Counted from the first letter of the stretch, positions 23,914 through 53,125 are shown. The stretch is DNA of 64,000 nt from Sulfolobales archaeon HS-7 (GCA_019704295.1 AP024596.1:416001-480000), one strand, 5' to 3'. A program made the numbers and translations. The notes: generated by a model from the sequence alone, not told the origin.

Positions 23914-24226
23914 ATGGACTACCCAGTCCTCACAAACGTGCCATCTACGCACCCCGATAGAGATTCTCTGCTTCTCAGAGAAACCTAGGTCTTGATTCAC
24001 TCACAGCAGAGGTTCCATTGTACGGAACCGTTCTGTCATCTCAGTGTGGAAGAGAGGTTATTGAGGGTTTTCTCTCCACAGGCTTAAGTTTCCCCAGTCC
24101 AGAGGGTACTAACCCAGATCTTAAAGCCAGAGTCCAAAAATTTTACAAAGAGGTATAAAAACGTTTCTATAAGGGGGACTATACATCAGCTCCTTACTGA
24201 AGGGGTCCTCAGCCAGCCTGCCCTCT
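23914..24226 (-). mobile_element. non-autonomous IS200/IS605-derived element (left end + promoter + tnpB 3'/omegaRNA-like region + right end), degenerate
   Basis: Minus strand reads GGACCCCTTCAGTAAGGAG (left-end-like), TTTTTATA, ...CCTGTGGAGAGAAAACC... (tnpB C-terminus-like), CTCTGAGAAGCAG, ...GTGAGGACTGGGTAGTCCAT (right-end-like); no ORF. Family assignment by recall, not by search. Confidence 0.65.
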
Positions 24227-24292
24227 AAGCGTAGGTTGCTATTTACACTAGATACCGTAGAGGTTTTAATTTTCTATGAGGGACAGATTGCG

Positions 24293-25267
24293 ATGAGAAT
24301 TCTCGTAATTGGAGGGGGAATTGCAGGCTCATCAGTAGCATTACTTCTTAGGCAGAGGGGAATAGATGTTACTATTATAGATGAGGGAAAACCCCGAGTG
24401 AACTCAGTTCTGATCCACTCCTTACTCCTTAAGGACGAAGACGTAAATCTCGCAAAGAGAACCTTGGAGCTATATAAAAAGTGGAATATCATACTTAGGG
24501 AGTACAAGTCATATACTATAGGAAATATAGACGAAAGATACTTAGATCAGTGGCATGAGGCGGGAGTGAAAGTAAGGAGGATTTCGATTAGGGAGCTAGG
24601 AGCAGAGGCTTATGAAGCAGTGGGAGGAGATAGATTAGTGAATATAGGGAAATTAATTACCTTGTCTTCTCCTATTCGAGCCAAAGTAAAGCTTACAATA
24701 GAAAACAACACTGCCTCAATACAAGGGGTCAGTTCTAACTTTGACGTAATAGTTCTAGCTTCTGGTGCGTGGAACGGTCAAATGATTAACGCGCCCTTAA
24801 AGTCTTATTACTGCTGGGCTTCCCTTGCAATTACTAATGCGTTTGCAGGAAGCAATATAATTTACGACTATGAGCTCGGTTTCTATTCCAGACCATTTAT
24901 CGGAGAGGGTTTACCACTGTCGATTGTTGGGGACGGAGAGGTTCTAGAATGTCCTCCGAAGAAAGTTCCAAAATTCTCCATTTTTAACGTAATAACCAAG
25001 GTTAACATGAGGTTTCGAGCAATACCCATTATAGTGGGAGGAAACTTCTGTGAAGGCACACCAGATATGCGACCTGTTTACGGTAAAGTACTCGAAAATT
25101 TGTACTTTATTGGAGGGTTAAACGGTTACGGTGCAGAAGTAGGACCTGCAGTTGCTGAAATGTTAGTTAACTACATAATTGATGGATTTGAGGATAAAAG
25201 GTACTCTTTGGGAAGATTTAACGACACAGGAGAATTCTCTCTAGGTAGAGAAGCTCATGAGTTTTAA
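24293..25267 (+). CDS. FAD-dependent oxidoreductase (DAO/sarcosine oxidase-like)
   Basis: GGGIAG dinucleotide motif, LASGAW, TPDMRPVYG, GLNGYG; ATG 24293. Confidence 0.88.
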   Translation: MRILVIGGGIAGSSVALLLRQRGIDVTIIDEGKPRVNSVLIHSLLLKDEDVNLAKRTLELYKKWNIILREYKSYTIGNIDERYLDQWHEAGVKVRRISIRELGAEAYEAVGGDRLVNIGKLITLSSPIRAKVKLTIENNTASIQGVSSNFDVIVLASGAWNGQMINAPLKSYYCWASLAITNAFAGSNIIYDYELGFYSRPFIGEGLPLSIVGDGEVLECPPKKVPKFSIFNVITKVNMRFRAIPIIVGGNFCEGTPDMRPVYGKVLENLYFIGGLNGYGAEVGPAVAEMLVNYIIDGFEDKRYSLGRFNDTGEFSLGREAHEF

Positions 25268-25834
25268 CAAAGTTCCTCTTAGAAATTAGTTTAAGGGACC
25301 ACGCTACTCTTTGTTTTATTATTGAACAGGATCACTTCTATAACCAAAATACAGATAGTTCAAACATTTTCCTCAATTTCAGGTTTTACTACTAAACAAA
25401 AATCAAATAATGACTTAGAATTTCACTATTCCCATAACTAGTGACACTAATTTCGTAAAGTATAGAAAAGTGTCCAAGATTTTTCAGAGAAGAAGTGTCA
25501 TCTCGCGTAGTTCGAGTATGGGGGATCACGTTAATACAAAACGTGAATCAACCTTAAGACAGGACCTCCTATCCAACCGTCGGCGGTGCGATCATGCACT
25601 AAGCTTCTTCACATCAACCTCGCCGTAAATCTCAGTTACATTCCCTTCATTAGCAACTATTATCGCCAATATATTTCACTAAAGCCTAGTCACCTTAATC
25701 CTGACTGATTTCCCCCATTAATGTGAAACGAGGGAAAATGGTAGAAAGCCCAAATCCCATGCTAAATTGGAATACGGAAAATCCGTAAAAAGTGAGATAA
25801 TAGTTAAGGAAAAGTTTTTATTTTTCTCGTCATT

Positions 25835-26680
25835 TTGATAACACAGTTAGAGGTTTGGGAGAGTGGAATAGTTACACACACCCTTTGCAAGGGCCGTGTG
25901 AAAGGTCCTTGTGGTAGGGTGTATTTAGACTTCAGGCCGAGGTATCTCCCTATAGCCTACCCGTTAGGGAACGCGTCGGCCTTTAAAGGCGCGGTAATGT
26001 TGGTTCTGGAAGGGAGTAGTATAAGGTCTTCTATAAAAGTACCACCAAACTTAGACATTATAAGGAAGGCGGCCATTAAATATAAGCCAGATACAGTGGT
26101 TTTTGACCCATTCATAGCAGGAAGAATGACAGATAAGACTGTCTTCAAAGTCATGAGAGAGATAAGTGAACAGATAGGTGCAAATTTTGTATTTAACGAT
26201 AGCGAAACCTACCTTTTCGATGAATTTGGATCAGTCGGTTTTTACACCTCATATGAAATACCAGTCATACGTAAGGTTAACAAAAAACTAATAGCCTTTG
26301 GCATTAAGAACGAGGAGGAGGAAAAAGTAGATTTAGAGCCTTATGATAACACATATGCAAATGCCAGTAAATTTGGTTCTATGTTAAGAAAAAGGTTCCA
26401 CGAAACCATGGATGGGATGGTAAATGTGCTTGGTGCAGGAAACATTATATCAATATATATAGGACCTAAGATAAGGCAATTCAGAGATCTGATATTTGTT
26501 AATCATGAAGCAATGAGACAACTGTCGTTAGCTTTAATTTTAAATGGAGTAATGGCGCACCCTGCTAAAATATTTATTGCGCCTTGTCACACCGAAGATG
26601 ACATTAACGTATTAGCGGAAAAGATTGAAAAAATAGTTCCAACAATTCTAGAGTTGAAGGCAGGAATACCGAAGTCATAG
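25835..26680 (+). CDS. degenerate class-III aminotransferase (HemL/GSA-like) fold protein
   Basis: VYLDF, VVFDP, C-terminal LILNGV...IFIAPCHTEDDI resemble GSA; PLP Asp/Lys motifs are not conserved; only 281 aa. Confidence 0.6.
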   Translation: MITQLEVWESGIVTHTLCKGRVKGPCGRVYLDFRPRYLPIAYPLGNASAFKGAVMLVLEGSSIRSSIKVPPNLDIIRKAAIKYKPDTVVFDPFIAGRMTDKTVFKVMREISEQIGANFVFNDSETYLFDEFGSVGFYTSYEIPVIRKVNKKLIAFGIKNEEEEKVDLEPYDNTYANASKFGSMLRKRFHETMDGMVNVLGAGNIISIYIGPKIRQFRDLIFVNHEAMRQLSLALILNGVMAHPAKIFIAPCHTEDDINVLAEKIEKIVPTILELKAGIPKS

Positions 26681-27150
26681 AGATTTTATCTCTTAGATTT
26701 GAGTAAGAGATTATCGTTAACAATAATGCAAAACTCATTTTCATATAAGTAATTCAATACAATTGTTTCCCGAGTTTAGGCGATTCTAACGTTTTCTTGA
26801 TAAAGCGATTAAAAAAATCATTTTAATTCCAATATTACTGTTTCAATACACTTGAGTTGAATTTAGGGAGATATAATAGTGTAACGGTCCACGAAAGGAC
26901 GCGACAGGACTTCTCCGAATTTCAAGCGCTAAATTAAAGACATTCGATTCCAGCAATCTCTTCCAAATAACGTAGTTCCCTATAGATTTTTGCTTTCTAA
27001 GGAGTGGCGCGTTCCCTTAACTTCATTAATCAAGGTGAGTACCGAAGAGCAAAAATTCGACCCCCAAATTTAAAGTACGGAGCTGAACAAAGCCTAGAAA
27101 GTGTCGTAACAAATGATAATTGCTCTAAGCGTGAGATGAAACCTTCACAC

Positions 27151-29481
27151 TTACCACCAAATAAGTCTTCTCATTATTTGAAAATCCAATTCATTAACGT
27201 CAATTGTAGAACCGTCAATAAAGTCAATTTTTGTGCCTATGATTGATCTTATCCATTTCCCCGTAACAAGGGATAAGGTTTCCGGCAAATCTACGTTATT
27301 TAATTCCTCTAGTTTTAACTTAACCTTATCTTTGCCCATTTCTACCAAACTAAGTAGTTTCGGATCTCTAAGGAACTCATATTTAAAGAACTTCCCCGAA
27401 GTATGATTTAGGTAGATAGAGCTTCTCAATATATCTTCGAACTGTTCCAGCTCGTAATACTTAAAGAATCCCTCAGTTTTTCCCCTATTGTAAAATCTCT
27501 TTATGTCCTCATCCGAAGATATGCCAGAACTGTCAAAGAACAAGACCTTTTTCATTCTAGGCAATACTACAGAGTAAAAGTGATCTCCCATCTCTATCCC
27601 AATCCACCTTCTCCTGAGTTTCTGAGCCACGGCAGTAGTTGTTCCTGATCCGAGGAAGAAATCCATAATAATGTCCCCTTCGTCCGTGGTTGACAAAATT
27701 ACCCTTTTAAGAAGGCTCTCAGAGTTTTCGGTTTCAAATCCCCATCTCCTTGAATAGCCTGGAATATCAGTCCAGTTATTTTTAACCACCGTGTCACTAG
27801 GGTAGTAATACACTTTGTCACCTACTACCTTTAACCTTCTCTCTCTCTCCAAGTAATTTATTTGTTCTTGGGTAAGTCCCCACTTCCTACCATGAGGACA
27901 TCTCATCCTACTTCCCAACACCACTCTGAACTCGTCCTCTTCGTCCTTAGGTTTCCCAGGCAAAAAGGGCTCCCACCACTTACCCATGCGGGGAATAGAA
28001 AGTTCTCTGAACTTAGGGGCGTTTGTTTTAGACCAGTAAAACAGAGTATCTGTATCTACCATGAAACGCTTTATGTTCCTCGCTGATTTGTAGAACTCTT
28101 TAGTTCTGCTTATTACAATCTCGTTCCTAAAATTATCCTTACCGAAGATTTCGTCTCCTAACATCCTTACATATGCGTTACCGTTATAATCACACCGTAT
28201 GAAAATTCCCCCATCATCCCTCAGTATTTCCTTTGCAAGAACTAACCTGTTTTCCAGCATAGTAATCCAAGTGGAGTCCTTATATTTGACGCTATAGAAG
28301 TAATCAGCTTCTTGTTCCTTGTTAAACGGAGGATCTATGTATATAGTTTGAACTCTGCGTTGGAATTTTTGCCTTAATGTGTTGAGAGCCTGATAATTTT
28401 CAGATTTTATGAGCCATCCATCAAGTTCTGAATCAATATTGAAAAGTGAAATGATGTCCTCTTCGACATCCTTAAAATACTTTGTATCTATTGGTAGAGT
28501 TAGGTAATTACCATCCCTTATTTCATTGGCTATTTCCTGGGCTGTATGCGAAATGAAACCAAGTTCTAGCCATTCCTTTACTTGAAGAGGGAAATTCCCA
28601 TGAGTAAGGATCTTCTCTAGTACCCTTTTTCCCCCTTCCTTCCTCAAAATCTTATTAATGGTCACGACGTAGTTTGATTTAAGTACGAAGCGGGGCTTAT
28701 TCCACATTTTTACAAGTTCTTCCTCAAAATTAGCCACTACGTCGATAACCTTTTCAGCCACATGAAGTAGAACTTCCAATTCCTCAATTCTAGACTTATC
28801 AAGAACAGTTCTACTATCAAGGAGATACTGATAAATCCAGATTTTAAGCTGTTCCTCTAAAAAACCACGAGGGTCCTTTGCTAGGAAGTAGTCGATATTG
28901 CTCTGTCTCTCAAAGGTCTTAATAGCTCTCTTGATTAAATCTTGATTAACGTTTAATAACGCCTCACTCGAGTTAATTTCCTCGTCTGACGAATTTACAC
29001 ATATCTCCACAACATTCTCCCTAACTCCACATATCCTATAGCGTAATTTTCCACCCTTAGAGCTATTCACCTTAAACTCAAACTCAACGGGATTAGAGGT
29101 TTCATCGAGTATCACCTTCATCGATTTAAGAACTCTTTCTGACTTTATGTAGTACAAACCTCGAGTTTTCCAAAAGAGAGCTACGTCCTCTCCAAATGCG
29201 TATATCCTGTCGTAAACTGAATATGAATCGGTATTGCAAAGGAAAACTGTCCCAGTCTCACAGAAGTATTTGAAGAAGAAGGTGTACAATTTTGAAAATA
29301 CCTCTTCTCTCAACTCCCTTTTCAGGTTAGAATCGGCATAATTTCTTATCTCCTGAATCGCGTTAAGGAAATACTCTCTCTTCATCCTCATTAAGCGAAT
29401 AAGGGGATCGTTACCTTCCACTTTTTCGCCAACAAATATTTCAGTAAGTTTGGAGAAGAAATCCTCATTGCTATGAGGCAA
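27151..29481 (-). CDS. beta-class adenine DNA methyltransferase (type III Mod-like)
   Basis: Motif IV IYIDPPFN precedes motif I DFFLGSGTT; long N-terminal extension with LFWKT..LYYIKS. Confidence 0.9.
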   Translation of the reverse strand: MPHSNEDFFSKLTEIFVGEKVEGNDPLIRLMRMKREYFLNAIQEIRNYADSNLKRELREEVFSKLYTFFFKYFCETGTVFLCNTDSYSVYDRIYAFGEDVALFWKTRGLYYIKSERVLKSMKVILDETSNPVEFEFKVNSSKGGKLRYRICGVRENVVEICVNSSDEEINSSEALLNVNQDLIKRAIKTFERQSNIDYFLAKDPRGFLEEQLKIWIYQYLLDSRTVLDKSRIEELEVLLHVAEKVIDVVANFEEELVKMWNKPRFVLKSNYVVTINKILRKEGGKRVLEKILTHGNFPLQVKEWLELGFISHTAQEIANEIRDGNYLTLPIDTKYFKDVEEDIISLFNIDSELDGWLIKSENYQALNTLRQKFQRRVQTIYIDPPFNKEQEADYFYSVKYKDSTWITMLENRLVLAKEILRDDGGIFIRCDYNGNAYVRMLGDEIFGKDNFRNEIVISRTKEFYKSARNIKRFMVDTDTLFYWSKTNAPKFRELSIPRMGKWWEPFLPGKPKDEEDEFRVVLGSRMRCPHGRKWGLTQEQINYLERERRLKVVGDKVYYYPSDTVVKNNWTDIPGYSRRWGFETENSESLLKRVILSTTDEGDIIMDFFLGSGTTTAVAQKLRRRWIGIEMGDHFYSVVLPRMKKVLFFDSSGISSDEDIKRFYNRGKTEGFFKYYELEQFEDILRSSIYLNHTSGKFFKYEFLRDPKLLSLVEMGKDKVKLKLEELNNVDLPETLSLVTGKWIRSIIGTKIDFIDGSTIDVNELDFQIMRRLIWW

Positions 29482-29586
29482 TGAATTCCCTATCTCATAG
29501 GGAATTTGTAAATTAATAAACCTTTACTGTCTTAAAAATCTCCCTAGGGGATAGTTCGTAAAATCTTCAGTAGGTTTAATATATAT

Positions 29587-30567
29587 TTGCGTCTAGTGGA
29601 GATCAGAATACCTGAATTGAAGCTTTTAATAATAGCAAGCGGAGGAGGGCATACGGGATTCGCCAGAGCCATTGCCCAATATCTTCCCTTTAAGGCGGAT
29701 TTCGTAATACCCTGTAACGACTCTACGAGTAAAAAAATGATAGAACCTTACGCTGACAAATTGGTTTGCGTAACCAAGTTAAGAATGCCAAATGAATCGT
29801 CACTTGTTATGATACCTCGAACTTTCACAGCGTTATCTCAATCTATAAGTCTTGACTCATATCAGACAGTTGTATCCACGGGAAGCAATCACTCTTTATT
29901 ACCATCATTAGTTGCCAGGATTAGGGGTTCTGAAATATTCGTAATAGAGAGTCAGGATAGGTTTCTGACACGGGGGAAAACAGTTTACCTACTCTCGCGA
30001 GTATCAAAAGAGGTGTTGTTACACTGGAAGGAACAGGAAAGCCTATATCCGTCTAAAGGAGTTCATGTTGGGCCGATAGTAGAGAGACCGAAATATCAAC
30101 CAAGAGATCAAGGATATTACCTAATAACGACGGGAAGTATGGGCTTTCCGAGACTTGTCAGAAGAGCACTTAGACTAAACTACGATTTCGTAATACAGGA
30201 TGCCACAGACCTAGAGGAGCTCAAAGGACATCCAAACTACTTCAAATTCGACCCAGACTTAGAGAAATGGATAGCTAATGCAACCGCGGTTATAACCCAT
30301 CAGGGGAAAACTGCAATGGAAGCAGTGGTTATGTACAGGAAACCTACACTCGTCGTGTATAATAAGGATTGGAAAAGTGCCACTACATTTAGGGATTCCA
30401 TGAAGTATGCGGAAGTTCTTGGCGCTGGATTCCTCCCAGATCCGGTGGATTGGAAGGATGACGAGCTTGATAAAGCATTAAAACAACTTTCAACTCCTAA
30501 GGAAATAGAACCCGGGACTCAGAATGCAGTCAAAAGAATTACTTCACAGAATAGTACTTCTCAATAA
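29587..30567 (+). CDS. agl24: Alg14/Alg13-like (MurG-related) GlcNAc transferase, Agl24-like, N-glycan biosynthesis
   Basis: IASGGGHTG, STGSNH, VIESQDR, ITTGSMG, ITHQGKTAME; probable start TTG 29617. Confidence 0.72.
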   Translation: MRLVEIRIPELKLLIIASGGGHTGFARAIAQYLPFKADFVIPCNDSTSKKMIEPYADKLVCVTKLRMPNESSLVMIPRTFTALSQSISLDSYQTVVSTGSNHSLLPSLVARIRGSEIFVIESQDRFLTRGKTVYLLSRVSKEVLLHWKEQESLYPSKGVHVGPIVERPKYQPRDQGYYLITTGSMGFPRLVRRALRLNYDFVIQDATDLEELKGHPNYFKFDPDLEKWIANATAVITHQGKTAMEAVVMYRKPTLVVYNKDWKSATTFRDSMKYAEVLGAGFLPDPVDWKDDELDKALKQLSTPKEIEPGTQNAVKRITSQNSTSQ

Positions 30568-31213
30568 AGAATTTGATAGAAGTCGCGATTTCCTAGCAAA
30601 GTATCGGTGGTTTGTCTCTCCTGAGGACTCTCCAAAATGGTGGGGGGGTTTGGATAGTCGAGATGAAATAGTAATATCCGCTATACTGGTTCAACAAACT
30701 AGATGGGAACAAGTGGAGAAAACTATATCCGAAATGAAGAGATCAGGAGTTAATGACCTGAGGAAAATAGCATCTCTGAGCGAGAAAGACCTAGACTCAA
30801 TTATAGCTAAAATAAACTTCCATAGAAGTAAGGCTAAGACGCTGATAGAGGCAGCAAGACTCTTGATTAAAAGTAATCCCTCTCGGGAAGCCCTCCTCTC
30901 GATAAAGGGTATAGGAGAGGAAACCGCTGACAGCATATTACTGTTTGGATTTAACGTGAGGACGTTGCCCATTAATTATTTTTTTAGGATTATCTTTTCT
31001 AGAATATCGGGTAAAGTAGATTCCCCTAAGTACATAAGGGATATAGTGCTAAAACAGGACTTCTCCTTATTTGAGTTGAAGCTATTATACGCTGGATTAT
31101 CGACAGTAGGAAAAGCTAATTGCAAGAGAGTTCCTGTGTGTAATACCTGTATAATTAAGAACTTGTGCAATGTTGGAACGGGAAAAGCAGATTATACTAC
31201 TATACATTTCTAA
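30524..31213 (+). CDS. HhH-GPD superfamily protein (endonuclease III-related) with 4Fe-4S FCL motif
   Basis: SAILVQQTRW, LLSIKGIGEETAD, C-terminal CKRVPVCNTCIIKNLC. Confidence 0.85.
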   Translation: MQSKELLHRIVLLNKEFDRSRDFLAKYRWFVSPEDSPKWWGGLDSRDEIVISAILVQQTRWEQVEKTISEMKRSGVNDLRKIASLSEKDLDSIIAKINFHRSKAKTLIEAARLLIKSNPSREALLSIKGIGEETADSILLFGFNVRTLPINYFFRIIFSRISGKVDSPKYIRDIVLKQDFSLFELKLLYAGLSTVGKANCKRVPVCNTCIIKNLCNVGTGKADYTTIHF

Positions 31214-31262
31214 TTACAGGAAATATTCCCTACTGAACCCAACGTTTAGCGATCCATATCCC

Positions 31263-31392
31263 CATTGCAAATTCAGTTTATTTCAATGATTACGAAAAGT
31301 TTAATTCATTACTACCGTAATAACTAGGTAACGATTCACGCTTAACAATTTACTTTATTCCCTTCATATCTCATAAATTACAATTTGCAGGA
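31263..31392 (+). mobile_element. ~130-bp MITE-like element, copy 1
   Basis: Ends CATTGCAAATT...AATTTGCAGGA; aligns over its length with 51254-51384 and with the reverse complement of 36362-36490. Confidence 0.7.
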
Positions 31393-31740
31393 GAACCTTA
31401 GATTATTAGGGTTTGCCACTAACTGTTCCCTGATAGATTAGTACCCAAAACTAGGGAAGCAAATTTCGTTCTCTTTATCTATTCATCATTTTGAGATTAG
31501 TAAATATATGCTTTGTCAAACCTTGAGGGTTAAGTGAAAATCCCTTACAGGAAAATATACAACACGCCTAACTCTCTGGAATACTAGGAATATCGCTCTG
31601 GAAGGTCTGTTATATACGAACCAGTAACCTTGGGTTTTTTTAGGTCTGACGAAGCATAATTATATCAAATTCCTCTCAATTCCGCAGATGAACAGTAAAG
31701 TGAAACTCATCTTTTTAAACTAAGAACGGAATAAGTTTCT

Positions 31741-32526
31741 ATGAAATCGTTACTCGTAATAATACTTTTATTAGGTGTGTTAGCGCCAGTTCTAGTAGCT
31801 AGTAGCCAGGCATCTGGAATGAAGTACGTTGATTACAGACTCCTAATTGGTGATAATACAAATACAGTAAATCTGAACGCAAATTTTACTTCTACCCCAT
31901 CAGGGAACCTTTACAATAATACAGTATATGTTACTGCATCAATAAAAATAGGTAACTTCTCCTCAAGTTACCACTTTACTAAGAGTCATACGTCAAATAG
32001 CAGCTTGGTTGAAAAATTAATCACGTCAAATCTGACACAGCTATTAAACCAGACCTTTAGTCTCACGAATTCGTTCAAAAGCTTTCCACTTAACATATCG
32101 TACAACATTAGTTACGCTCCCAATAGTACAACTACGGTTACCGTTGAATCATCTCAGTATAGCGCTAACATATATAACCTCCACGGACTTATTGTTGCAA
32201 GCTATAATGGAGGGTTAATGTCTCAAACATATTCTGGTAACCTTACATCACATTTATCCGGTCAGGTTGCAGTAATTAAAGTAACTGGAACTTTATATAG
32301 CGCCTATCTCACTGCCACACTAAACACGTACTCATCATCAGGGATGAACTCCATGATGTTTCCCTCATCGCTCAACACATTTTCAATAGAAGTGCAATTG
32401 GTAGGCACTAACGCGTTACCTGTCCAAGGTAACTCCATGATGACTGACGAGATTATTATAGGCGTACCCTCTGTGTTGGCAGTTGTAGGAGCAGTGGCTT
32501 TCTTATTGATAACTAAGAAAATTTAG
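31741..32526 (+). CDS. secreted, C-terminally anchored Ser/Thr/Asn-rich surface protein
   Basis: Signal peptide, many NxS/T sequons, C-terminal TM followed by KKI; T-tract after the stop. Confidence 0.8.
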   Translation: MKSLLVIILLLGVLAPVLVASSQASGMKYVDYRLLIGDNTNTVNLNANFTSTPSGNLYNNTVYVTASIKIGNFSSSYHFTKSHTSNSSLVEKLITSNLTQLLNQTFSLTNSFKSFPLNISYNISYAPNSTTTVTVESSQYSANIYNLHGLIVASYNGGLMSQTYSGNLTSHLSGQVAVIKVTGTLYSAYLTATLNTYSSSGMNSMMFPSSLNTFSIEVQLVGTNALPVQGNSMMTDEIIIGVPSVLAVVGAVAFLLITKKI

Positions 32527-32648
32527 TTTTTTTAAGATAAACTACCTTAAATCCTAGTTAAATTAGATTTCTATTTTTCGCTCTTCGAAAAGTTCTAATA
32601 ACAGCATTACTTAAAGCTAATATTATCATTTATTTAAGGGAGTATTTA

Positions 32649-35219: not shown

Positions 35220-35238
35220 GCTAATATATTTTTTCGTA

Positions 35239-35691
35239 GTGTATTTACTATTTTTCTTTATAGGGCTGTTATTTTATGACTTAAGTGACTTGCTCACTGC
35301 TTATCCCATTCCAGTACCCTCATTCCTATTTTATACACCTCTCACCCATATGGTATTTATCGACATTCAAATTTTGGCAACACCTCTACTATTCTTGCTA
35401 TTCTATTTTGCGACAAAAAAGAACAACGTTCTTACTCTAATTATAGGGTATTACATAATGTTCGTTCTATTCTTTTTTTCGCACGCAGTTTTTTTCCTCT
35501 TCATTTTATCATTGATTGGTCTAGGAATGTTCATCACAGTAATTCCCAGTTTTACCTCAGTCTTGAGTAAAGTATTTTGGGGAATATCATCGCTCTATTT
35601 GATAGTGATGATGGTGAGCCCCTATTACTCATTATTTATAATACCTAGTGTAATAGCTTCTGGAGCGGAAATAATGAAGTTAGTGAAATAG
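35239..35691 (+). CDS. small polytopic membrane protein
   Basis: 150 aa, almost entirely hydrophobic, 19 bp downstream of the secreted-protein gene. Confidence 0.65.
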   Translation: MYLLFFFIGLLFYDLSDLLTAYPIPVPSFLFYTPLTHMVFIDIQILATPLLFLLFYFATKKNNVLTLIIGYYIMFVLFFFSHAVFFLFILSLIGLGMFITVIPSFTSVLSKVFWGISSLYLIVMMVSPYYSLFIIPSVIASGAEIMKLVK

Positions 35692-35711
35692 GGGTTGCCC
35701 GTTCACATTTC

Positions 35712-35765: not shown

Positions 35766-35798
35766 AGAATAACATTAATTAGGAGGGGGAAACATGTC

Positions 35799-36080
35799 AT
35801 GAACTCACTCCTTCTTGACAAAAGGAGCTTCCTGTTTCAAGACTTCACTCTGGCTAGAGGGCTCCGCACACCATGATGATCACATCCCGAGTTTACGTTA
35901 GTGCCCCGCATAGGACAACCGATTAGAGCAGAGATATACCACGACGGTCCTCGCTCAGGCGTCTTGGGACGCTTACTCCGTCAATCGCTGTCATTGATTT
36001 ACGGGTTGGAAACTACTTAAACTTATACAAAGGGGCCTATCTATCCTCGTGGATCTTCCGTCCCCAAATCCTCCATCGAG
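35799..36080 (-). mobile_element. non-autonomous IS200/IS605-derived element (SMN/PATE-like) with structured omegaRNA-like interior
   Basis: Minus strand: TTTAA immediately outside the left boundary, GGGGACGGAAGATCC left end, AAGTTTAAG TATA-like box, nested hairpins GACGG/CCGTC and GCGTC/GACGC, right end GAAACAGGAAGCTCCTT...AAGGAGTGAGTTCAT. Confidence 0.72.
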
Positions 36081-36361
36081 TTAAATTGTTTTCCACACTA
36101 CGTAACACTGAAAAAGATTTTTCGTAAAGCGTCTACTCGACATTGGTAGGATTTATTAGTAGAGGAGAACAGAAACGAAGGAACAAAGAATAAGGGTATT
36201 AGTCTGATAACTTCTCGGAAATACCATTAATTTTCCGGGCGATACCAATGTTAGTAACTATGAATATTTCCTAATATTTATTAACTTATTATCTTGTAAT
36301 TATATTTTTAGACCTTAAAGACCCATAGTCCTTTTACGAGCCCTTGGGACATTCACACTTT

Positions 36362-40531: not shown

Positions 40532-40551
40532 TTCGGGTAAGAATTCACCTT

Positions 40552-44869: not shown

Positions 44870-45114
44870 TAATTAACATAAAGATAGCCCGTTACTATAC
44901 CTTTTAAACTCTTAAGAAATTTCCTGAAATTTCGATTTAACCCGGTCATAAAGAGTGAATGCGTCAGCCGCTCAGCAAAGATGGTGGAGGGGGTGAAAAG
45001 TCGTTGTCAACATTTTCGAATAAACAGTAAAGTTAAATGCTTCATACATTAAAAATATTTTATAATTCTTATCACTAAATGTAAATAAGCTTTCACGAAA
45101 GGTAACAGGACACA

Positions 45115-45260
45115 AAATATGCGGGTTTCTTCATATCTATGAGTAGGTGTGGGTTGGGGTTATTAACCAAAGGGACGGAAAAGGTTAACCCAGCAAACAC
45201 CGTGACTTTAATGAAGTCTAGGGTTGAAAGTTGAGATGAAATCTTATTAAAGCCGAAACG
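45115..45260 (+). mobile_element. tnpB 3'-end / right-end relic (IS607/IS605-like), structured
   Basis: Nested pairings GGTGT/ACACC, GTTGGG/CCCAGC, TTAACC/GGTTAA, then GTGACT..ATGAAGTCTAGGGTTGA...GCCGAAAC resembling Sulfolobales tnpB tails (recall, not searched). Confidence 0.5.
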
Positions 45261-45814
45261 ACTAATGTTAGTGATAGATGAGCACTTAAATCTTTCTTCA
45301 AATTACTTAAGCAACGTTACGCTTCCTTGTAATCTAGAGTGAGGATCAAGTTTCTCCACCTGGGTAATAGTTCCTTGAGCTAGACGATTCTAAAGGAGAT
45401 AAAGGGAGATATGTTGATCTTTAGAGTCTAGGGAGATATAGCGAAGCCCAGATCGATCAAGCGCTTAATGATACTGAGGAAGGGGAAACTAACAATATCT
45501 CATACTTCTCCTGTCTCTATCGACCTGAAGGTTATCTGTAACCGAAGCCCTATTTCTCAAGTTGGGTATCTCTAAACCATTGGACTACTTACCAATTGAG
45601 GGACGTATTTCAGAATAAGATTGGAAACTATTGACTCCTTCCAAGGTAATTCTCACTATCTCAGGGGGTAGAGCTTCACGCTTAAGGAAATCAACGACAT
45701 CCACCCGACTCAAGTCCGTATTACAGAGACTTATCATCGTGTTTTATAAGGTGAAATCGGATACTCGACCTACATATAAGGAGAATTTTAAACCACGGAC
45801 AGGAAAGGTATTGT

Positions 45815-47092
45815 ATGGGATATTTTGATGATTTACCTTGGACAACCAGAGTAAGGACATTCCTCATTGCCTCCTCAGGAATTTTACTAGATGGATACGA
45901 CCTTTCAACGATCTCGTTTGCTCTTCTCTTAATCAGGGGAGAACTTCATCTAACAACTTTAGAATATAGTTTGTCAACGGCGTCGTCCCTATTCGGTATG
46001 ATAATAGGTTCGATAATAATGGGGTGGCTCTCAGATAAGGCCGGAAGGAAAACCCTTTTAGGCATAGACCTTCTGTTTTTCCTAATATTCGGCACACTCT
46101 CTGCACTATCAACGAATTTTGCGGAACTGTTCACGTTTAGGCTATTACTTGGAGTAGGAATAGGTGCGGATTACCCAATAAGTTCTTCCCTGATGGCAGA
46201 AGTCGCCTCCTCGCAAAGTAGAGGAAAATATCTTATCGGTTCTGTCGCAATGTATTGGATAGGTACGGGGCTTGCAGCAGGATTGACTGCGTCCTTACTT
46301 TACCTCGGACCGTATTTCTGGAGATATGTCTTCCTGATTGGCGGTCTATTAGCTATCCCCATAGTTTTAGCTAGATTAACAATTTCAGAATCTCCAAGGT
46401 GGATGGTAATGGCAGGAAAACTTGCTGGAAATAACGTACCAACTAGAGAGGAGGAAACTGTAGGGTTAACCTCATTTAAAGGTTTATTCTCTTCTAAAGT
46501 TATAAAAATTACAACTTATGTACTTGCAGCGTGGTTTCTATTCGACGTAGCATCGTATGGAATCGGGCTTTACTACCCTCTTCTCCTTAGTGACTTTGGT
46601 TTCAAGACGCTGTACTCTGTGGCCATTGCCAACGTATTCATAGCCGTAGCCGCTATTGGAGGTTATCTGCTTGCTCTTCCCCTGATTGATACGTTAGGCA
46701 GGAAAGGAATGTTATTGGCCGGGTTTGGAGGTATGGCGTTTATCTTATTCTTTGGAGCAATAACAAGAGCAACTGGTTATTCGCTCCTAGCAACCTTTAT
46801 GAGTTTTGCAGCAATAGAACAGTGGGCCGGAGCGATAACATTATTCTATCCCACTGAGGTCTTTCCGACAAGTGTGAGGGCATCAGGACAAGGTCTTGCT
46901 ACTGCAGTAAGCAGAGTAGGAGCAGTAATAGGCGTTTTCGTTTTCCCCTACGTTACAACTATTATGGGATTATCTAGATCGCTAATCATGTTTGGAATAT
47001 TCTCTTTAGTCGGGCTTATATTAACGGCATTTTTAGCAAAGGAAACCAAAAAGAAAGCGTTAGAGGAGATATCCAAAAAAATTATATCTTAA
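45815..47092 (+). CDS. MFS transporter (sugar porter/phosphate:H+ symporter-like)
   Basis: LDGYD, SDKAGRK, RLLLGVGIGADYP, ESPRW, EVFPTSVRA, ETK. Confidence 0.93.
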   Translation: MGYFDDLPWTTRVRTFLIASSGILLDGYDLSTISFALLLIRGELHLTTLEYSLSTASSLFGMIIGSIIMGWLSDKAGRKTLLGIDLLFFLIFGTLSALSTNFAELFTFRLLLGVGIGADYPISSSLMAEVASSQSRGKYLIGSVAMYWIGTGLAAGLTASLLYLGPYFWRYVFLIGGLLAIPIVLARLTISESPRWMVMAGKLAGNNVPTREEETVGLTSFKGLFSSKVIKITTYVLAAWFLFDVASYGIGLYYPLLLSDFGFKTLYSVAIANVFIAVAAIGGYLLALPLIDTLGRKGMLLAGFGGMAFILFFGAITRATGYSLLATFMSFAAIEQWAGAITLFYPTEVFPTSVRASGQGLATAVSRVGAVIGVFVFPYVTTIMGLSRSLIMFGIFSLVGLILTAFLAKETKKKALEEISKKIIS

Positions 47093-47865
47093 TATATACA
47101 TTGAGATGCCAGTGGTCCTGCAGCATAAAGTATGTAACTTTCTATATAGTTAGATTCGTTGACTATTGCACTGAAACTATCGAGATGTGACATCACGTAT
47201 TGCGGAGTGTAACCCTCTAGTAGTTTAGGACTAACTAAGGCTCCCGTAAGTACGTAAGTGCCGTTAGGACCTGTGATTAAAAGTCCGAAGTTCAAATGCG
47301 GGGGCTTAACAACTAAAGCGCTTGCGTTATTGTAATTTATTAAGGGTACCTGCGTTTCATATTTGATCATTAGGGCTGCTATATTCTGGGGAAGTTGAGC
47401 GTAGAGGACCTGTTCACCAACAGGGATTAGCTGATTAACAGGGATCGGTTGACCTGAAGGGGTTGCGTTAAGATATTCATTATATGTGTACACTACTTCA
47501 TATTCGACCACACCGGAGGGTTTAAATCCAGTAAATATTAGACCCGGTACGTTTGAAGCCGCCTTATCGAAAGGATCAGAGTAGTGTTCGTAATATGATA
47601 AGTTTCCGTAATGGAATAACACGTTATATATAACCCAAGAAGCCGCCGCTCCCACCGGGCATCCGATCCATGACTGTTCAACTATCAGGATCTTTCCTTT
47701 GGGAGCGTAATCTACGTTACTTATTTTTACGAACTTTCCGTATGGTATGGCCTGACTCTTACCTATAATGTATTTATAACCCACAAAATAAAATGCTAGC
47801 ACACCCGCTATTATTACAATTATTAGTCCTATGGTCACTAATTTATTCATTATTACTTTTTTCAT
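47089..47865 (-). CDS. DUF929-like membrane-anchored protein
   Basis: N-terminal TM, SWIGCPVGAAASW motif. Confidence 0.7.
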   Translation of the reverse strand: MKKVIMNKLVTIGLIIVIIAGVLAFYFVGYKYIIGKSQAIPYGKFVKISNVDYAPKGKILIVEQSWIGCPVGAAASWVIYNVLFHYGNLSYYEHYSDPFDKAASNVPGLIFTGFKPSGVVEYEVVYTYNEYLNATPSGQPIPVNQLIPVGEQVLYAQLPQNIAALMIKYETQVPLINYNNASALVVKPPHLNFGLLITGPNGTYVLTGALVSPKLLEGYTPQYVMSHLDSFSAIVNESNYIESYILYAAGPLASQCIY

Positions 47866-47990
47866 ACAATAGTTTATAAAAGTAATGTTGAATTATAAGC
47901 TCATTCAACTAGATCTACGCCTTTTAAATATGTAGTCCTATAAGCTTATTATAAGAAAAAATTTTAGGTAAGTAAGGATCACTTCTTTTC

Positions 47991-48461
47991 ATGACAAAGG
48001 TAGGAGATAAGTTACCAAATGTAACGTTAATAAACCAGGACTTAAAGTCAGTAAATCTAGGAGAATTGAAAGGAAAGGTAACAGTTTTGGCGTTCTTCCC
48101 AGCAGCTTTCACTTCCGTATGTACTAAGGAAATGTGCACATTTAGAGATAATCTCTCAAAGTTCAATAACCTAAACGCAACTGTTTTCGGTATTTCAGTT
48201 GACCCGCCATTTAGCAATAAGGCCTTTAAGGAAGCGAATAAGCTTAACTTCGACCTTCTTAGCGACTTCAACAGGGAAGCTGTTAGGGCTTTTGAAATAG
48301 AGACTGAGTTACCCGTATTAAAAGGCTACAAGCTTGCAAAGCGTTCAGTGTTCGTTGCAGATAAGGAAGGAGTAATAAGATACGTATGGGTATCCGAAGA
48401 TGCCGGAAAGGAACCTAACTACTCTGAAATTGAGGAAGTTGTTAAAAAATTAAATAGTTGA
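47991..48461 (+). CDS. peroxiredoxin (Bcp/PrxQ, CxxxxC)
   Basis: FFPAAFTSVCTKEMC, GISVD, LLSD, KRSVF. Confidence 0.93.
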   Translation: MTKVGDKLPNVTLINQDLKSVNLGELKGKVTVLAFFPAAFTSVCTKEMCTFRDNLSKFNNLNATVFGISVDPPFSNKAFKEANKLNFDLLSDFNREAVRAFEIETELPVLKGYKLAKRSVFVADKEGVIRYVWVSEDAGKEPNYSEIEEVVKKLNS

Positions 48462-48465
48462 CTTT

Positions 48466-48711
48466 TTACGCAGTAACATGCAGCTTATCCGTTAACCTAT
48501 CTAAAATTTCCTTATTTTCAGGAAGCCTTTTCTCTTTATATCTAGAGAATACCATTTCCTCATCAAAGTATACGTCAAATATACCGTTAGTCCCTGCCTC
48601 CAATGTAACTTTGACTCCATTTAGGCCATATAACTTTAATATCTCATTTGCGAGGGAAGTAGCCCTATCTGTATATCCACAAGGTTTACAAAACACGATT
48701 CGAACATTCAT
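48466..48711 (-). CDS. Rdx (SelW/SelT/SelH) family protein
   Basis: IVFCKPCGY, GIFDV, FSR....LPE. Confidence 0.88.
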   Translation of the reverse strand: MNVRIVFCKPCGYTDRATSLANEILKLYGLNGVKVTLEAGTNGIFDVYFDEEMVFSRYKEKRLPENKEILDRLTDKLHVTA

Positions 48712-49084
48712 AGAAAACTATACTCAATTATAACTATTAAAATTACCTAGTAGAGATAGTCTACTAAATTTTTACGTAAATGTTAGTCGTTTTTGATTGC
48801 CCTTAACCAGAATAACGTAATTAAGAAAGCTGAGGATATGGTTCTATAGCCGGTTAGCGCAACTAATGGATCTGTATCCGTAATGCTTTACATTGTTAGA
48901 AAATTTTAGAAAAGCCTCCTACCATACGCTAAAATAAGCTAGACTTGTCCTTATTATGCAAAGATATCTTTTCCTGCATCTGTTTACCATGCAGAAGGAA
49001 GAACGAAGAAAGTGTATAACGAGAGTAAGCTAATCATAACGTATATATTTTCATTACAATTTGCAATCTATCATAGCAATCATT

Positions 49085-49107
49085 AGCTTTTTAACTGTTA
49101 ACTAGCT
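49085..49107. promoter_or_regulatory. imperfect palindrome overlapping the TATA box of the MFS-marR operon (candidate MarR operator)
   Basis: AGCTTTTTAACTGTTAACTAGCT, core TTAAC-T-GTTAA. Confidence 0.5.
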
Positions 49108-49116
49108 TATGATCTT

Positions 49117-50793
49117 ATGCAATACAAGTGGATTGCTCTAACTAATACTACTTTAGGAGTTCTGATGGGAGCGATGAATGGTACAATATTGCTTATCTCC
49201 CTGCCAGCCATCTTTAGAGGAATCGGAATAAATCCTTTCAATTCCTTTCAATATCTGCTCTGGGTTCTATTCGGATATAATATAGCCACAGCTACCCTTC
49301 TCGTGACTTTCGGAAGGATATCTGATATGTTTGGACGCGTTAGACTCTACAACCTCGGTTTTCTAATATTCACCATAGGTTCCATCCTCTTATTTCTAAC
49401 TCCAGGTAAGGGAAATGAAGCAGCACTAGAGATAATATTCTTTAGATTAGTCCAGGGTGTAGGCGCTGCATTCCTGATGGCTAATAGCGCTGCGATAATA
49501 ACAGACGCTTTTGGACCGCAAGAAAGGGGAAAAGCATTGGGTTTAAATCAGGTAGCAGCACTTGCAGGTTCGCTGTTAGGATTGATCCTCGGCGGGATAC
49601 TTGCCGTATTGAACTGGAGATACGTTTTCCTAGTTAGCGTTCCCTTCGGAATTGCAGGAACGATATGGTCGTACACTAAACTTAGGGAAATGGGAAAGAT
49701 AACCTCTGGTCAAAAAATAGATTACCTAGGGAACCTTCTTTTCGGCGCTGGGTTGATATTCATCTTGATAGGAGTGACTTATGGATTACTTCCTTACGGA
49801 AATTCATCAATGGGTTGGGGAGATCCCTGGGTTATAACCTCTATCGCTGCAGGATTAGCTATGCTTGTCGTATTCCCATTCGTGGAGAAGAAGGTTAAAT
49901 ATCCGATGTTCCGTTTAGAACTTTTTAAATTGAGACCCTTCGCCATGGGAAGTATAGCAACACTTCTTAGCGCGATAGCTTTTGGTGGAGTGCAGATTAT
50001 CCTTATAATATTACTCCAGGGAATATGGCTACCTCTTCATGGTTACAGTTACTCCTCAACTCCTTTCTGGGCGGGGGTCTATATGATTCCGCTAAGCCTA
50101 GGGTTTGTAACGTTGGGACCAATTAGTGGAAGACTCTCCGATAAGTATGGTTCCAGACTGCTGTCAACACTGGGTATGATAGTAGTTGCGATATCATTTC
50201 TCGCTTTATTAACCCTCCCATATAACTTCAATTATGCCGATTTCGCCGTAATCATATATGTGATGGGATTAGGTAACGGACTATTCATAGCACCGAATAC
50301 GGCATCTATCATGAATTCGGTGCCTCCTGAACACAGGGGTTCAGCCTCGGGTATGAGGAGCACTTTTCAGAACGTTGGTCAGACGACAAGTATAGCAATT
50401 TTCTTTTCCATAGTTATCTACTATCTTGGATTAGGATTAAGTAGCGCGTTTAATACCGCTCTCGCCTCATCGCCTGCATTAGCTCACGCTTTCTCATCTA
50501 TACCCCCTACTGGTGCTCTATTTGCAGCTTTCCTGGGATATGATCCTGTTAAAACCGTGCTAGGGTCATTGCCTCCATCTATAGCTTCATCAATAAACCC
50601 ATCTATACTAAATACGATAACCCAAAGGACGTGGTTTCCCACAACAATAGCTCCACCATTTATGAGAGCACTAGATATAGCCTTCATTATATCAGCAATA
50701 ATTTCAATAGGGGCCGCAATATCATCATATTTAAGAGGTAAGCAATTCATTTACGAGCGTGACGTAATTGGAGAAGTACAGAGAACAGGTTGA
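49117..50793 (+). CDS. 14-TM MFS drug:H+ antiporter (DHA2/EmrB-like)
   Basis: [33 protein letters not shown]. Confidence 0.92.
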
Positions 50794-51187
50794 ATTATGG
50801 GAGGCTATAGTAAAGTTAGTCAGGGCTGTAAACAGGGATTTTGATAAAGGTCTTCAAAAAATTGGAATATCTTTTATGGAATTTAAGGTTCTAGATATAA
50901 TAAAAAAGGAGGGCTCTTTGCCTATGGTAAAGGTGGTCTCTGAAATGCTGATCACGAAACCAGGACTTACAAGCGTTGTGGATAAATTGGAGAGAAAAGG
51001 ATTAGTTAAACGGGAACGTTCTCTTCAAGATAGAAGAATAATAATGCTTAGATTGACTGAAGAGGGAGAGATAACTTGGAGAACCTCTGTAGAAATTTAT
51101 AAGACAATGGTCTCGGAAATCCTTCAGAAAATTTCTCCTAAAGAAATGAACACATTGCTAGAAATCATAAGGAGATTATCGAGCTAG
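50768..51187 (+). CDS. MarR family transcriptional regulator
   Basis: [14 protein letters not shown]...DRR...LTEEG; overlaps the MFS gene end. Confidence 0.92.
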
Positions 51188-51253
51188 CAAGCTTGGTTCG
51201 GATATGCACTACTCGTGATAGCTTACATTTCGTCCACGGGTTACTCACGCGTT

Positions 51254-51384
51254 CATTGTGAATTCAGTTTATTTAGAAAAATCAGATGAATTTAATTAGA
51301 TGTTATCTTATGGACTAGTAGGGATTCACACTCAACAGTTTCCTTTATTTAATCGAATCTTTGCCATTACTACAATTCGCAATG
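51254..51384 (+). mobile_element. ~130-bp MITE-like element, copy 3
   Basis: TIR CATTGTGAATT / AATTCGCAATG (10/11); interior CTAGTAGGGATTCACACTCAACAGTTTCCTTTATT resembles CTAGGTAACGATTCACGCTTAACAATTTACTTTATT of copy 1. Confidence 0.72.
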
Positions 51385-51437
51385 GAAACCTGAATCACCT
51401 ACACATGGTTTTAAAAATATAAAAAAGCTTTTAGTTA

Positions 51438-52154
51438 CTAAGCTTGAGCCTTATTTTCTTCTTCGATAGCCCAAGGAAACACTCTACCATTTAACAGGTC
51501 CTCTGACACTTCTTCCATGTCCTTAATAGTATCTACAGATCTCCAGTAGGCATCAAATTTAGTCCCCTTAATTTTTCCCTCCTTAGCTAGTTCAGGGAAG
51601 GTTACCTTCTCTAGATCGCCTTTATCTGGAAGGATGTCGAGTATTTGGGAACTCATAAGATAGATACCCGCATTTATCCAGTACTCCTTTAGGTACGGTT
51701 TTTCGTCGAACCTTATTACATCATTATTTTCATTGACGTAAACTATGCCGAATGGACTCTTTAGCGGAACTAAGGCTATGTTAACGGTTTCCCCATTAAG
51801 ACGAATGCGAGTAAGATCTACATTAGAAATTATATCTCCATTAAATAATAGGAAATCCTCACCAGTTAAGATATGACCGGCGTTTTTCACTGCTCCAGCC
51901 GTGCCTAAAGGTTCTTCTTCGATTGAGTAGACTATATTTACTCCAAACCTCTTCCCTCCCCCTAAATACTCTATTAATTTTTCCTTTTTGTATCCAGCTA
52001 AGATTACAATTGATGTTATTCCGAACCTCTTAAGCCACATTATCTGCCATTCGATTATTGCCTTTCCACCTAATTCTACTAAGGGTTTCGGTTTATCGTC
52101 AGTATAAGGACGAAGTCTCTTCCCAAACCCTCCTGCTAATATGACCGCTTTCAC
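51438..52154 (-). CDS. sugar-1-phosphate nucleotidyltransferase
   Basis: ILAGGFGKRLRPYT...PKPL, EPLGTAG, NGD, NAGIY. Confidence 0.92.
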   Translation of the reverse strand: MKAVILAGGFGKRLRPYTDDKPKPLVELGGKAIIEWQIMWLKRFGITSIVILAGYKKEKLIEYLGGGKRFGVNIVYSIEEEPLGTAGAVKNAGHILTGEDFLLFNGDIISNVDLTRIRLNGETVNIALVPLKSPFGIVYVNENNDVIRFDEKPYLKEYWINAGIYLMSSQILDILPDKGDLEKVTFPELAKEGKIKGTKFDAYWRSVDTIKDMEEVSEDLLNGRVFPWAIEEENKAQA

Positions 52155-52393
52155 AGGAAATACTAATTTTTGAAGTAAATAATATAGCTATTCTAACTAT
52201 TAGTTTACAATGAGTAGGTCTTTAAGCTACTAACTTCGTAATAATTTTAAGGCGTCGATCTAGCACAGTTGTTACACTGGTGATTTCGTAAAGTCCTTTT
52301 CATTAAGAAAACGTTAAAACGATGAAATCTACCAAAAATACTAATGCGTTTTTCTAGAAGAATTTATTACTCTTTAATTATTCTACGTTAAAT

Positions 52394-52939
52394 ATGAACA
52401 GGAATAAAATTTCAGGATTATTACTATTTATCGGTATAGCTCAATTCTTATTACTAATGCTTCTTTCTGAGGTAATCTACCCAGGATATAGTATATCTCA
52501 TAATTACATAAGTGATTTAGGTGTTGGAAAAACCGCGTTGATATTTAATTCCTCTATAATTTTACTTGGGGTACTTCTCATAGCGTCTGGTGCTCTCTTT
52601 ACAACTTCAACAGTATTTAGGATTTTGATTATATTAACAGGGATTGGAGCTGCGGGGGTCGGTCTATTCCCAGAGACTACGGGAACGCCACATCTGATTT
52701 CGGCTTTATTAGCGTTTCTATTCAGTAGTCTAGCATCATTTGTAACTGTAAGAGTAAGTAGAACGCCCCTTAAGTACATTTATCCTATACTGGGCGGAAT
52801 GGGATTAGTGGCTTTGACTCTTTTCATATTAAAGGATTATTTAGGATTAGGACCTGGAGGGATGGAAAGATTCATAGTATATCCTAATATGTTATGGGCG
52901 CTAGGATTTGCCAATGAGATTGTAGAGATACAATCTTAG
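52394..52939 (+). CDS. DUF998 membrane protein
   Basis: YPGYS...NYISDLG, GVGLFPE, GGMERFIVYP. Confidence 0.85.
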   Translation: MNRNKISGLLLFIGIAQFLLLMLLSEVIYPGYSISHNYISDLGVGKTALIFNSSIILLGVLLIASGALFTTSTVFRILIILTGIGAAGVGLFPETTGTPHLISALLAFLFSSLASFVTVRVSRTPLKYIYPILGGMGLVALTLFILKDYLGLGPGGMERFIVYPNMLWALGFANEIVEIQS

Positions 52940-52944
52940 GAAAA

Positions 52945-53125
52945 GAATCCTCCCCGCCTCACGAAGGCTATGGTTACTCTGCGAGTGGCTTATCGTTCTT
53001 GACATTGATTCCGGGCTACATCTTCCATTTAATGGGATGTAGAGATTACGGAAAGCTATCCCATCTGAAAGCGTGTGTCTATCATTCGTATTATCGGAAG
53101 CGCACAGTATAAAAAGCCTTACGAG
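52945..53125 (-). mobile_element. protein-less tnpB 3'/right-end cassette with own TATA box (IS200/IS605-derived), degenerate
   Basis: Minus strand: TTTTTATA (53108-53115), hairpin CTACATC/GATGTAG, ...GATGTAGCCCGGAATC..GAACGAT...GCCTTCGTGAGGCGGGGAGGA, resembling Sulfolobales tnpB right ends. Confidence 0.55.

Follow-up and report, generated by a model that had tools for sequence, protein, structure and literature searches.

Four intergenic islands of Sulfolobales archaeon HS-7 as probable remnants of tnpB-bearing transposon lineages

The window analyzed here, a stretch of 64,000 nucleotides from Sulfolobales archaeon HS-7 (positions 416001-480000 of a single-contig, 2.15-Mb genome of 39.6% GC), contains four short islands, which are, with a probability of roughly 0.85, remnants of four tnpB-bearing transposon lineages of the IS200/IS605/IS607 family in this Sulfolobaceae genome: islands 1-3 would be gene-less mini-elements, and island 4 a truncated tail. 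The right ends of such transposons encode the scaffold of the omegaRNA, while the flanking DNA supplies the guide. A preliminary description of the window had reported four non-coding islands as cassettes resembling such ends, and had proposed that they could act as guide RNAs in trans or as domesticated regulators. All four islands exist, and no open reading frame (ORF) of at least 80 aa is found inside any of them. The homology is confirmed as well: the islands match IS200/IS605/IS607 ends, among them the right end with the 3' tail of tnpB, they belong to four lineages, and islands 1-3 keep the left-end promoter region. A function as trans-acting guides or domesticated regulators, however, is not borne out for these four copies, whose guide-position flanks are unique, whose family 2 lacks covariation beyond shuffles, and among which islands 1, 3 and 4 are degenerate. 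Most likely, the four are old, diverged and decaying passengers rather than domesticated genes. The features of the islands are as follows, with positions here and below in window coordinates unless marked as genome positions:

23914..24224, minus strand: island 1, a probable 311-bp gene-less mini-element of family 1, IS605-derived, with a left-end hairpin, CCCCCTTATAG and TTTTTATA boxes (24154-24174) and a tnpB-tail/right-end scaffold of ~240 nt
23894..23913, minus strand: guide-position flank of island 1, TAAACCTCCTAAATGTTTTT
35799..36080, minus strand: island 2, a probable 282-bp mini-element of family 2, derived from a tnpB-only type, with a left-end hairpin, a TTTGTATAAGTTTAAG box (36016-36031) and a tnpB-tail scaffold of ~205 nt with a terminal hairpin
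36081..36085, minus strand: target motif TTTAA of island 2, directly 5' of the left end (family consensus TTTAT)
35779..35798, minus strand: guide-position flank of island 2, GACATGTTTCCCCCTCCTAA
45000..45114, plus strand: left-end part of island 3, starting with GTCGTTGTCAACA, with an AT-rich TATA-like stretch at 45049-45068; outside the span given in the preliminary description
45115..45263, plus strand: tnpB-tail/right-end (omegaRNA-region) part of island 3, family 3; the whole element measures 264 bp
52945..53098, minus strand: tnpB-tail part of island 4, a truncated tail and right-end relic of a probable fourth lineage

Islands 1-3 are repeats with 10-17 copies each in the genome as detected by blastn. 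Profiles built from the blastn matches of each island and searched with nhmmer yield 30 matches for family 1, 88 for family 2 and 31 for family 3, of which 13, 36 and 18, respectively, cover at least 70% of the profile. The family alignments of islands 1-3 have sharp boundaries that are common to the copies; the element ends obtained by alignment lie at 23914-24224(-), 35799-36080(-), 45000-45263(+) and 52945-~53098(-). The right ends first placed at 23914, 35799, ~45260 and 52945, and the left ends at 24226 and 36080, were therefore right to within a few bases, whereas the original island 3 comprised the right-end part only of an element that starts at 45000. Multiple dispersed copies sharing both their boundaries and the same internal deletion junction are a property of families 1-3, not of island 4. 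Likewise, both ends are homologous to ends of tnpA/tnpB elements in islands 1-2 (intact elements of the same genome) and in island 3 (IS607-type elements of relatives), while in island 4 this applies to the right end only. Similarity to tnpB 3' regions or insertion sequence (IS) ends of the same genome, suggested at the outset as a check, was thus found for islands 1-3, and for island 4 in relatives. No transposase or TnpB gene lies inside the islands, as expected for gene-less derivatives. Copies within families are ~65-90% identical, which implies that none of them is recent. Altogether, the genome has ~65 near-full mini-element copies (~150 profile matches), as against three intact tnpB genes and a single intact Y1 tnpA. 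A weak match to the family 1 profile at 22049-22132 (E 7e-6, profile positions 186-285) may be a further small relic. In family 2, the sole sign of a recent event is a pair of nearly identical, inverted mini-elements ~730 bp apart (genome 706884-707227(-) and 707961-708323(+)), which may have arisen by inverted duplication at the site or represent a composite arrangement.

The parents of families 1 and 2 can be traced within the same genome, where the sequence directly preceding tnpA/tnpB elements matches the 5' part of each profile and the last ~80-120 nt of these elements match the 3' part. For family 1, the two profile parts correspond to the left (5') and right (3') ends of an IS605 copy at genome 1659154-1660895(-), the parent type comprising a Y1 TnpA and a 414-aa TnpB. 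The parent type of family 2 is tnpB-only, with TnpB proteins of 424 and 419 aa, a target-adjacent motif (TAM) TTTAT/TTTAA and the end TTCAC; here, the intact TnpB genes at genome 1019715-1021087(+) and 1939703-1941053(-) lie between the two profile ends, and profile parts also flank a further tnpB-only element at genome 1782717-1784151(-) as well as several decayed ones. Translated, the interiors of family 2 align with the final ~58 TnpB codons (tblastn E ~1e-5). At the opposite end, island 2 and the element encoding the 424-aa TnpB both carry a left-end hairpin GGGGG...CCCCC and a box TTTGTATAAG(G/T)TTAA, and island 1 shares CCCCCTTATAGAAA..TTTTTATA with the IS605 left end. Since the TATA-like boxes align with the left ends of full elements, the boxes of islands 1-3 are best read as inherited tnpA/tnpB promoter regions. 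The three TATA-like boxes reported initially are all present (24154-24161, 36016-36031 and 53106-53113), but the third sits in an unrelated IS110-family relic next to island 4.

Individual window copies deviate from their families to different degrees. Island 1, 78% identical to its family consensus, terminates in GTAGTCCAT compared to GTAGTTCAC in the consensus, and is preceded by CTTAG where the family has a TTAA-like target motif, i.e., both its target motif and its right end are degenerate. Island 2 ends in GAGTTCAT (TTCAT), the family 2 consensus in GAGTTCAC (TTCAC). While a target motif 5' of the left end is clear in family 2 (TTTAT) and TTAA-like in family 1, none is evident in family 3. 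In all three families, the length of the tail has been kept: the 3' 175-250 nt represent the tnpB tail and right end, where the omegaRNA is encoded. Island 2 is the only reasonably intact guide candidate of the four. The notion of parallel families holds insofar as four different tnpB lineages are involved; families 1 and 2 nonetheless share the core motifs CCTGTGGAG and GAAGCAGGAA and the end GTTCAC. At islands 1 and 2, a Shine-Dalgarno-like box followed by a start codon (TTAGGAGG..(5-9 nt)..ATG, 23897-23916 and 35781-35801, plus strand) is present on the strand opposite to the element, its ATG being the reverse complement of the right-end terminus (..CAT). These signals open frames of only ~22-25 codons into the element and are probably due to chance, because other copies of the families lack them.

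Island 3 is the most decayed copy of family 3, with the lowest identity to the family consensus among 13 copies (64%) and ~11 nt of the terminal hairpin deleted. Its AT-rich left end includes TTAAAAATATTTTATAA, and its terminus is degenerate (GCCGAAACGAC vs. GCCCAAACCCC; family 3 ends in GAAGCCCAAACCCC). The 3' part of the family adjoins three decayed tnpB remnants (at genome 198770, 665637 and 623463), with which island 3 aligns from the shared junction onward (genome 198690, 665557 and 623383), and the translated interiors align with the final 40 TnpB codons (tblastn E ~1e-5). All copies of family 3 that were aligned with the three remnants share a single junction immediately behind the RuvC-III coding motif, which points to a single deletion and subsequent amplification. 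An intact TnpB of this lineage was not found in the HS-7 genome, which holds the three broken remnants only, but 12 of the family's 14 genera have one (~431-435 aa, with 80-84% identity to the remnant). In these relatives, 1.9 kb separate the two parts of the mini-element, left and right, and a TnpA with MerR-type helix-turn-helix and resolvase domains lies between them together with a 431-aa TnpB, so that the parent of family 3 appears to be an IS607-type element with a serine TnpA and a TnpB of ~431 aa. The only trace of a resolvase-type (IS607) TnpA in the HS-7 genome lies at genome 683246-684907(-): an open frame of 126 aa that matches the model in part (positions 1-67 of 145) and adjoins a 174-aa tnpB fragment. 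Since this sole trace is partial, family 3 with its 31 matches has no intact transposase in this genome.

Island 4 derives from a fourth lineage and differs from the others in being single-copy in the HS-7 genome. Its tail of ~100-150 nt, in which the match is solid at 52945-53042 and weak up to ~53098, corresponds to the right ends of two elements, a mini-element of ~350 bp and a tnpB-only IS of 1.28 kb (TnpB of 383-385 aa, PF07282), and GAATGATAG at ~53098 is a remnant of the RuvC-III coding motif. Such elements are abundant in two relatives (G005 and G025, with 43 and 29 matches, respectively), and the reading of island 4 as an unrelated single-copy non-coding RNA was rejected in view of the matches to relatives. 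A Pfam search of ORFs overlapping the relatives of island 4, as possible TnpB fragments, returned none, the link to tnpB being provided by the full elements of G005 and G025. An intact TnpB of this lineage was not found in the HS-7 genome. Directly beside the tail lies the end of a different element:

53100..53236, plus strand: IS110-family relic, the last ~135 nt downstream of the transposase

This sequence is homologous to the ends of elements with PF01548+PF02371 transposases in four other genera. No DEDD transposase gene (PF01548+PF02371) contiguous with it is left in the window, i.e., it is a relic rather than an element. The TTTTTATA sequence at 53106-53113, which had been taken for the promoter of island 4, belongs to this IS110 piece, and island 4 consequently has no inherited tnpB promoter. 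On the far side of the relic, the flank 53237-53250 reads TTTAT+CTTTATGGGGG on the minus strand and resembles an IS605-type target motif followed by the start of a left end; one tnpB element may therefore have been hit by an IS110-type element, and most of that tnpB element would later have been lost. A comparable arrangement occurs in a relative (L048:1632-1650): there, as at 53237-53250, an IS110-family end is flanked by TTTA(A/T)CTTTA(C/T)GGGGG. With an IS605-like flank in two of six flanks, perhaps three, the IS110-type element may prefer IS605 left-end hairpins as targets.

How could gene-less elements have become so numerous? In each of families 1-3, one deletion would have fused the left end with its tnpA/tnpB promoter region to the last ~175-250 nt of the element, and the product, consisting of left end and tnpB tail/right end, would then have spread. 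The mini-elements would have been moved in trans by TnpA, i.e., by a Y1-type enzyme in families 1-2 and by a serine recombinase in family 3. A transcript starting at the kept left-end promoter could yield an omegaRNA with flanking DNA as guide, after which a TnpB supplied by another locus could cleave the vacated donor site and so bring the element back. Such homing by TnpB in trans would explain why three independent families kept a scaffold-length tail instead of a short end. The partners for this scheme are unevenly represented: among 15 matches to the TnpB zinc ribbon in the genome, three are in intact genes (414, 419 and 424 aa), and the transposases amount to one Y1 TnpA and one partial serine recombinase adjoining a tnpB fragment. 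The absence of an intact TnpB from the genome had been named as an outcome that would speak against trans-acting guides; an intact cognate protein does exist for families 1 and 2, but none was found for families 3 and 4.

The evidence from RNA structure is less uniform, and several observations weigh against the interpretation of the islands as mini-elements that carry an omegaRNA scaffold. Similarity between the middle of family 1 and the intact IS605 TnpB tail is weak (tblastn E 0.4). Single copies fold no better than dinucleotide shuffles (z of -1.0, -0.4, -1.1 and +0.2 for islands 1-4), so that the term "hairpin-rich" used for them initially is not significant for any one copy. In family 2, the reverse strand folds about as well as the forward strand (-43.8 and -46.2 kcal/mol, respectively), hence the structure fixes neither the strand nor an action as RNA, and covariation does not exceed that of shuffled alignments (0.222 vs. 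0.217, with 136 of 500 shuffles as high). The covariation in family 3 is higher than in any shuffle (0.228 vs. 0.193, 0 of 500), yet related sequences alone can beat all shuffles without any structure, which weakens this signal. Finally, none of the four islands has a match in Rfam 15 at the gathering score or better than E ~0.1 (hits allowed to E 10, chance-level only), although Rfam may hold no archaeal omegaRNA model; as no Rfam family matches any island, the label omegaRNA is one of positional homology only.

Other structural features are in line with an inherited scaffold. The family alignments fold better than column shuffles, with alifold z-scores of about -4.0, -3.9 and -7.4 for families 1, 2 and 3; the consensus fold of family 2, which was obtained from a trimmed set of 15 copies, has -46.2 kcal/mol compared to -30.1 ± 4.1 kcal/mol in column-shuffled alignments. 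RNAalifold gave almost no consensus structure for the full 21-copy alignment of family 2, in which truncated rows and flanks were kept. The consensus pairs can form in 82% of cells in family 2 (21 copies; 38-49% with partners slid) and in 82% in family 3 (19 rows; 30-53% with partners slid), the latter with 29 vs. 17.7 cells changed on both sides, and 85% of the family consensus pairs form in island 1. Covariation among genomic copies, a check proposed in the preliminary description, is thus moderate in family 3 and absent beyond shuffles in family 2. The scaffold structure is inherited and was probably maintained while the lineages were active, and the dispersed copies show no sign of being kept by selection. 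As to potential targets, the guide-position flanks of the four islands have no second genomic match with up to one mismatch, and no near-match beside a TAM: the flank of island 1 is unique in the genome at up to one mismatch (16 nt) and up to two mismatches (20 nt), and that of island 2 has no second match at up to three mismatches (20 nt). Unique flanks are the look of ordinary homing guides and lend no support to regulatory targets.

A different view of island 2 is that it constitutes a working stand-alone guide-RNA locus, which would be transcribed from the promoter of its left end, loaded on the 419- or 424-aa TnpB encoded elsewhere, and would protect the place of its insertion through cleavage of the empty site (TTTAA plus flank). 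Indeed, the island has retained TTTAA as its TAM, a tail of scaffold length and the terminal hairpin, its left-end box is homologous to the tnpB promoter region, and two intact family 2-type TnpB genes are available in the genome. Moreover, TnpB7 of S. islandicus can use a guide RNA that is transcribed at a different locus (PMC11043419), and the tail of ~175-250 nt kept by three independent families is more than end recognition alone would seem to need. However, the right end of island 2 is TTCAT and not the invariant TTCAC, its tail is, as judged by eye, visibly diverged from the intact tnpB tails, covariation in family 2 stays within the neutral range, and the fold of the single copy (z -0.4) is that of a shuffled sequence, which together make a working locus unlikely. 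Regarding the mini-elements of the genome as a whole, with island 2 as the best candidate in the window, it seems distinctly unlikely that some still serve as trans guides, with a few TnpB proteins policing tens of loci, or as antisense regulators of convergent neighbor genes similar to RNA-257 of S. solfataricus; if true, an archaeon would possess a repertoire of guide RNAs derived from transposons.

Domestication as small RNAs (sRNAs) in the narrower sense, i.e., one or more islands giving promoter-driven tnpB-tail transcripts that pair in trans with mRNAs whose 3' untranslated regions (UTRs) read antisense into a copy of the same family, has a precedent in S. solfataricus, where RNA-257(1-4), which originate from the distal tnpB of ISC1904, destabilize the 1183 mRNA (PMC3674436). 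The parent of family 3, with resolvase and TnpB, has the same layout as ISC1904, and islands 2 and 4 are convergent to the 3' ends of genes (35239-35691(+) and a DUF998 gene ending at 52939, respectively). Nevertheless, this explanation is very unlikely for the islands, given that no sRNA target was found and the guide-position flanks are unique in the genome, that the divergence of copies within families (only 65-80% identity) makes antisense pairing between them imperfect, and that island 3 is the most decayed copy of its family and island 4 has no other copy in the genome. The islands could also be unrelated structured non-coding RNAs or chance GC-rich intergenic stretches, which would agree with the lack of Rfam matches and of tnpA or tnpB in the window. 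Yet families 1-3 comprise tens of dispersed copies each, with sharp common boundaries and with ends homologous to tnpA/tnpB elements in this genome and in relatives. End homology and copy numbers refute a non-transposon origin, to which we assign next to no probability. The preferred interpretation remains that the islands are decaying remnants of four transposon lineages.

The surroundings of the islands are unremarkable in terms of coding content, with genes for BacA, an FAD oxidoreductase, a rhodanese, MFS transporters and a DUF998 protein. As claimed before, the window is free of tnpA and tnpB: neither PF07282 nor PF01797 nor tblastn matches to TnpB were found within genome 416001-480000. 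The only Rfam match in the window is a tRNA-Ala. An elevated GC content, which had been attributed to all islands, applies to islands 1, 2 and 4 (47, 50 and 46%, respectively, vs. 34-39% in the flanks), but is marginal in island 3 (40 vs. 36.5%). Further features lie beyond island 4. At 53452-53808 there is an AT-rich element of ~357 bp bounded by perfect terminal inverted repeats (GTGTCCAATGTGTAAT...ATTACACATTGGACAC). The genome contains more than 40 near-full copies of this classical miniature inverted-repeat transposable element (MITE) of the terminal-inverted-repeat type, which has no relationship to the IS605-type families and seems to outnumber every other repeat of the genome. An intact-looking antitoxin-like ORF (76 aa) that overlaps a PIN-domain (VapC-like) gene (141 aa) is located at 53946-54598; the two have the repeat cluster on one side and, on the other, a broken DDE (PF01609) transposase at 55215-55655, with the tRNA-Ala (56228-56302) further downstream.

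The kind of element, its use in trans and its domestication as sRNA have all been described before, and the islands add members to a known theme, not a new principle. Even so, the ~150 repeats, which Rfam cannot annotate, explain many of the GC-rich, promoter-bearing "orphan" intergenic blocks in the genome, and the scaffold-length tnpB tail kept by three independent lineages is in line with the published proposal that homing by TnpB in trans benefits mini-elements. The closest conceptual counterparts are palindrome-associated transposable elements (PATEs), minimal gene-less derivatives of IS200/IS605 elements known from Haloquadratum (PMC3119063) and Geobacillus (PMC10055086); according to Meers et al., PATEs often encode omegaRNAs, which are necessarily used in trans by the TnpB of other elements (PMC10055086). 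Like PATEs, islands 1-3 are gene-less, keep left and right ends of the IS200/IS605 type and occur in many dispersed copies. They differ in being crenarchaeal families with sequences of their own, which have kept the left-end promoter region and a long tnpB tail of 175-250 nt, and in that the parent of family 3 is IS607-type (serine recombinase) instead of Y1.

Among archaeal systems, the IS605 elements of S. islandicus REY15A insert after TTTAA, the shown TAM, and end in TTCAC, with the guide following UUCAC; TnpB7 requires a right-end element RNA (reRNA) of ~176 nt that overlaps the tnpB 3' end, and accepts a separately expressed guide (PMC11043419). Families 1-2 resemble these elements in their end (G)TTCAC, island 2 also in following TTTAA, and the tail length matches the requirement for ~176 nt of reRNA. 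In contrast, the TnpB7 work tested full tnpB elements experimentally, while the tails described here are orphaned, diverged and read from sequence only, the window copies ending in TCCAT (island 1) and TTCAT (island 2) rather than TTCAC. Non-coding repeats with similar features have been reported in the same order: a MITE-like repeat of Acidianus hospitalis W1 carries the downstream end of OrfB (PMC3119797), and SMN1 of S. islandicus (320 bp) is mobilized by ISC1733 (PMC3718332). The common features are a size of ~300 bp, the downstream orfB/tnpB end, the lack of terminal inverted repeats and the proposed movement in trans; the HS-7 families differ in their higher copy number (up to 88 matches per family) and the coexistence of four lineages, as judged by description. 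Finally, the RNA-257(1-4) sRNAs of S. solfataricus, which are intergenic and have promoters, stem from the distal part of tnpB in ISC1904, an element described as containing a resolvase and a putative transposase, and act as antisense regulators (PMC3674436). Islands 1-3 are likewise intergenic, promoter-bearing remnants of the distal tnpB region, in family 3 with a resolvase-plus-orfB element as a counterpart of ISC1904, but whereas RNA-257 has a transcript, a shown target (the 3' UTR of the 1183 mRNA) and demonstrated regulation, the islands are known as DNA sequences alone.

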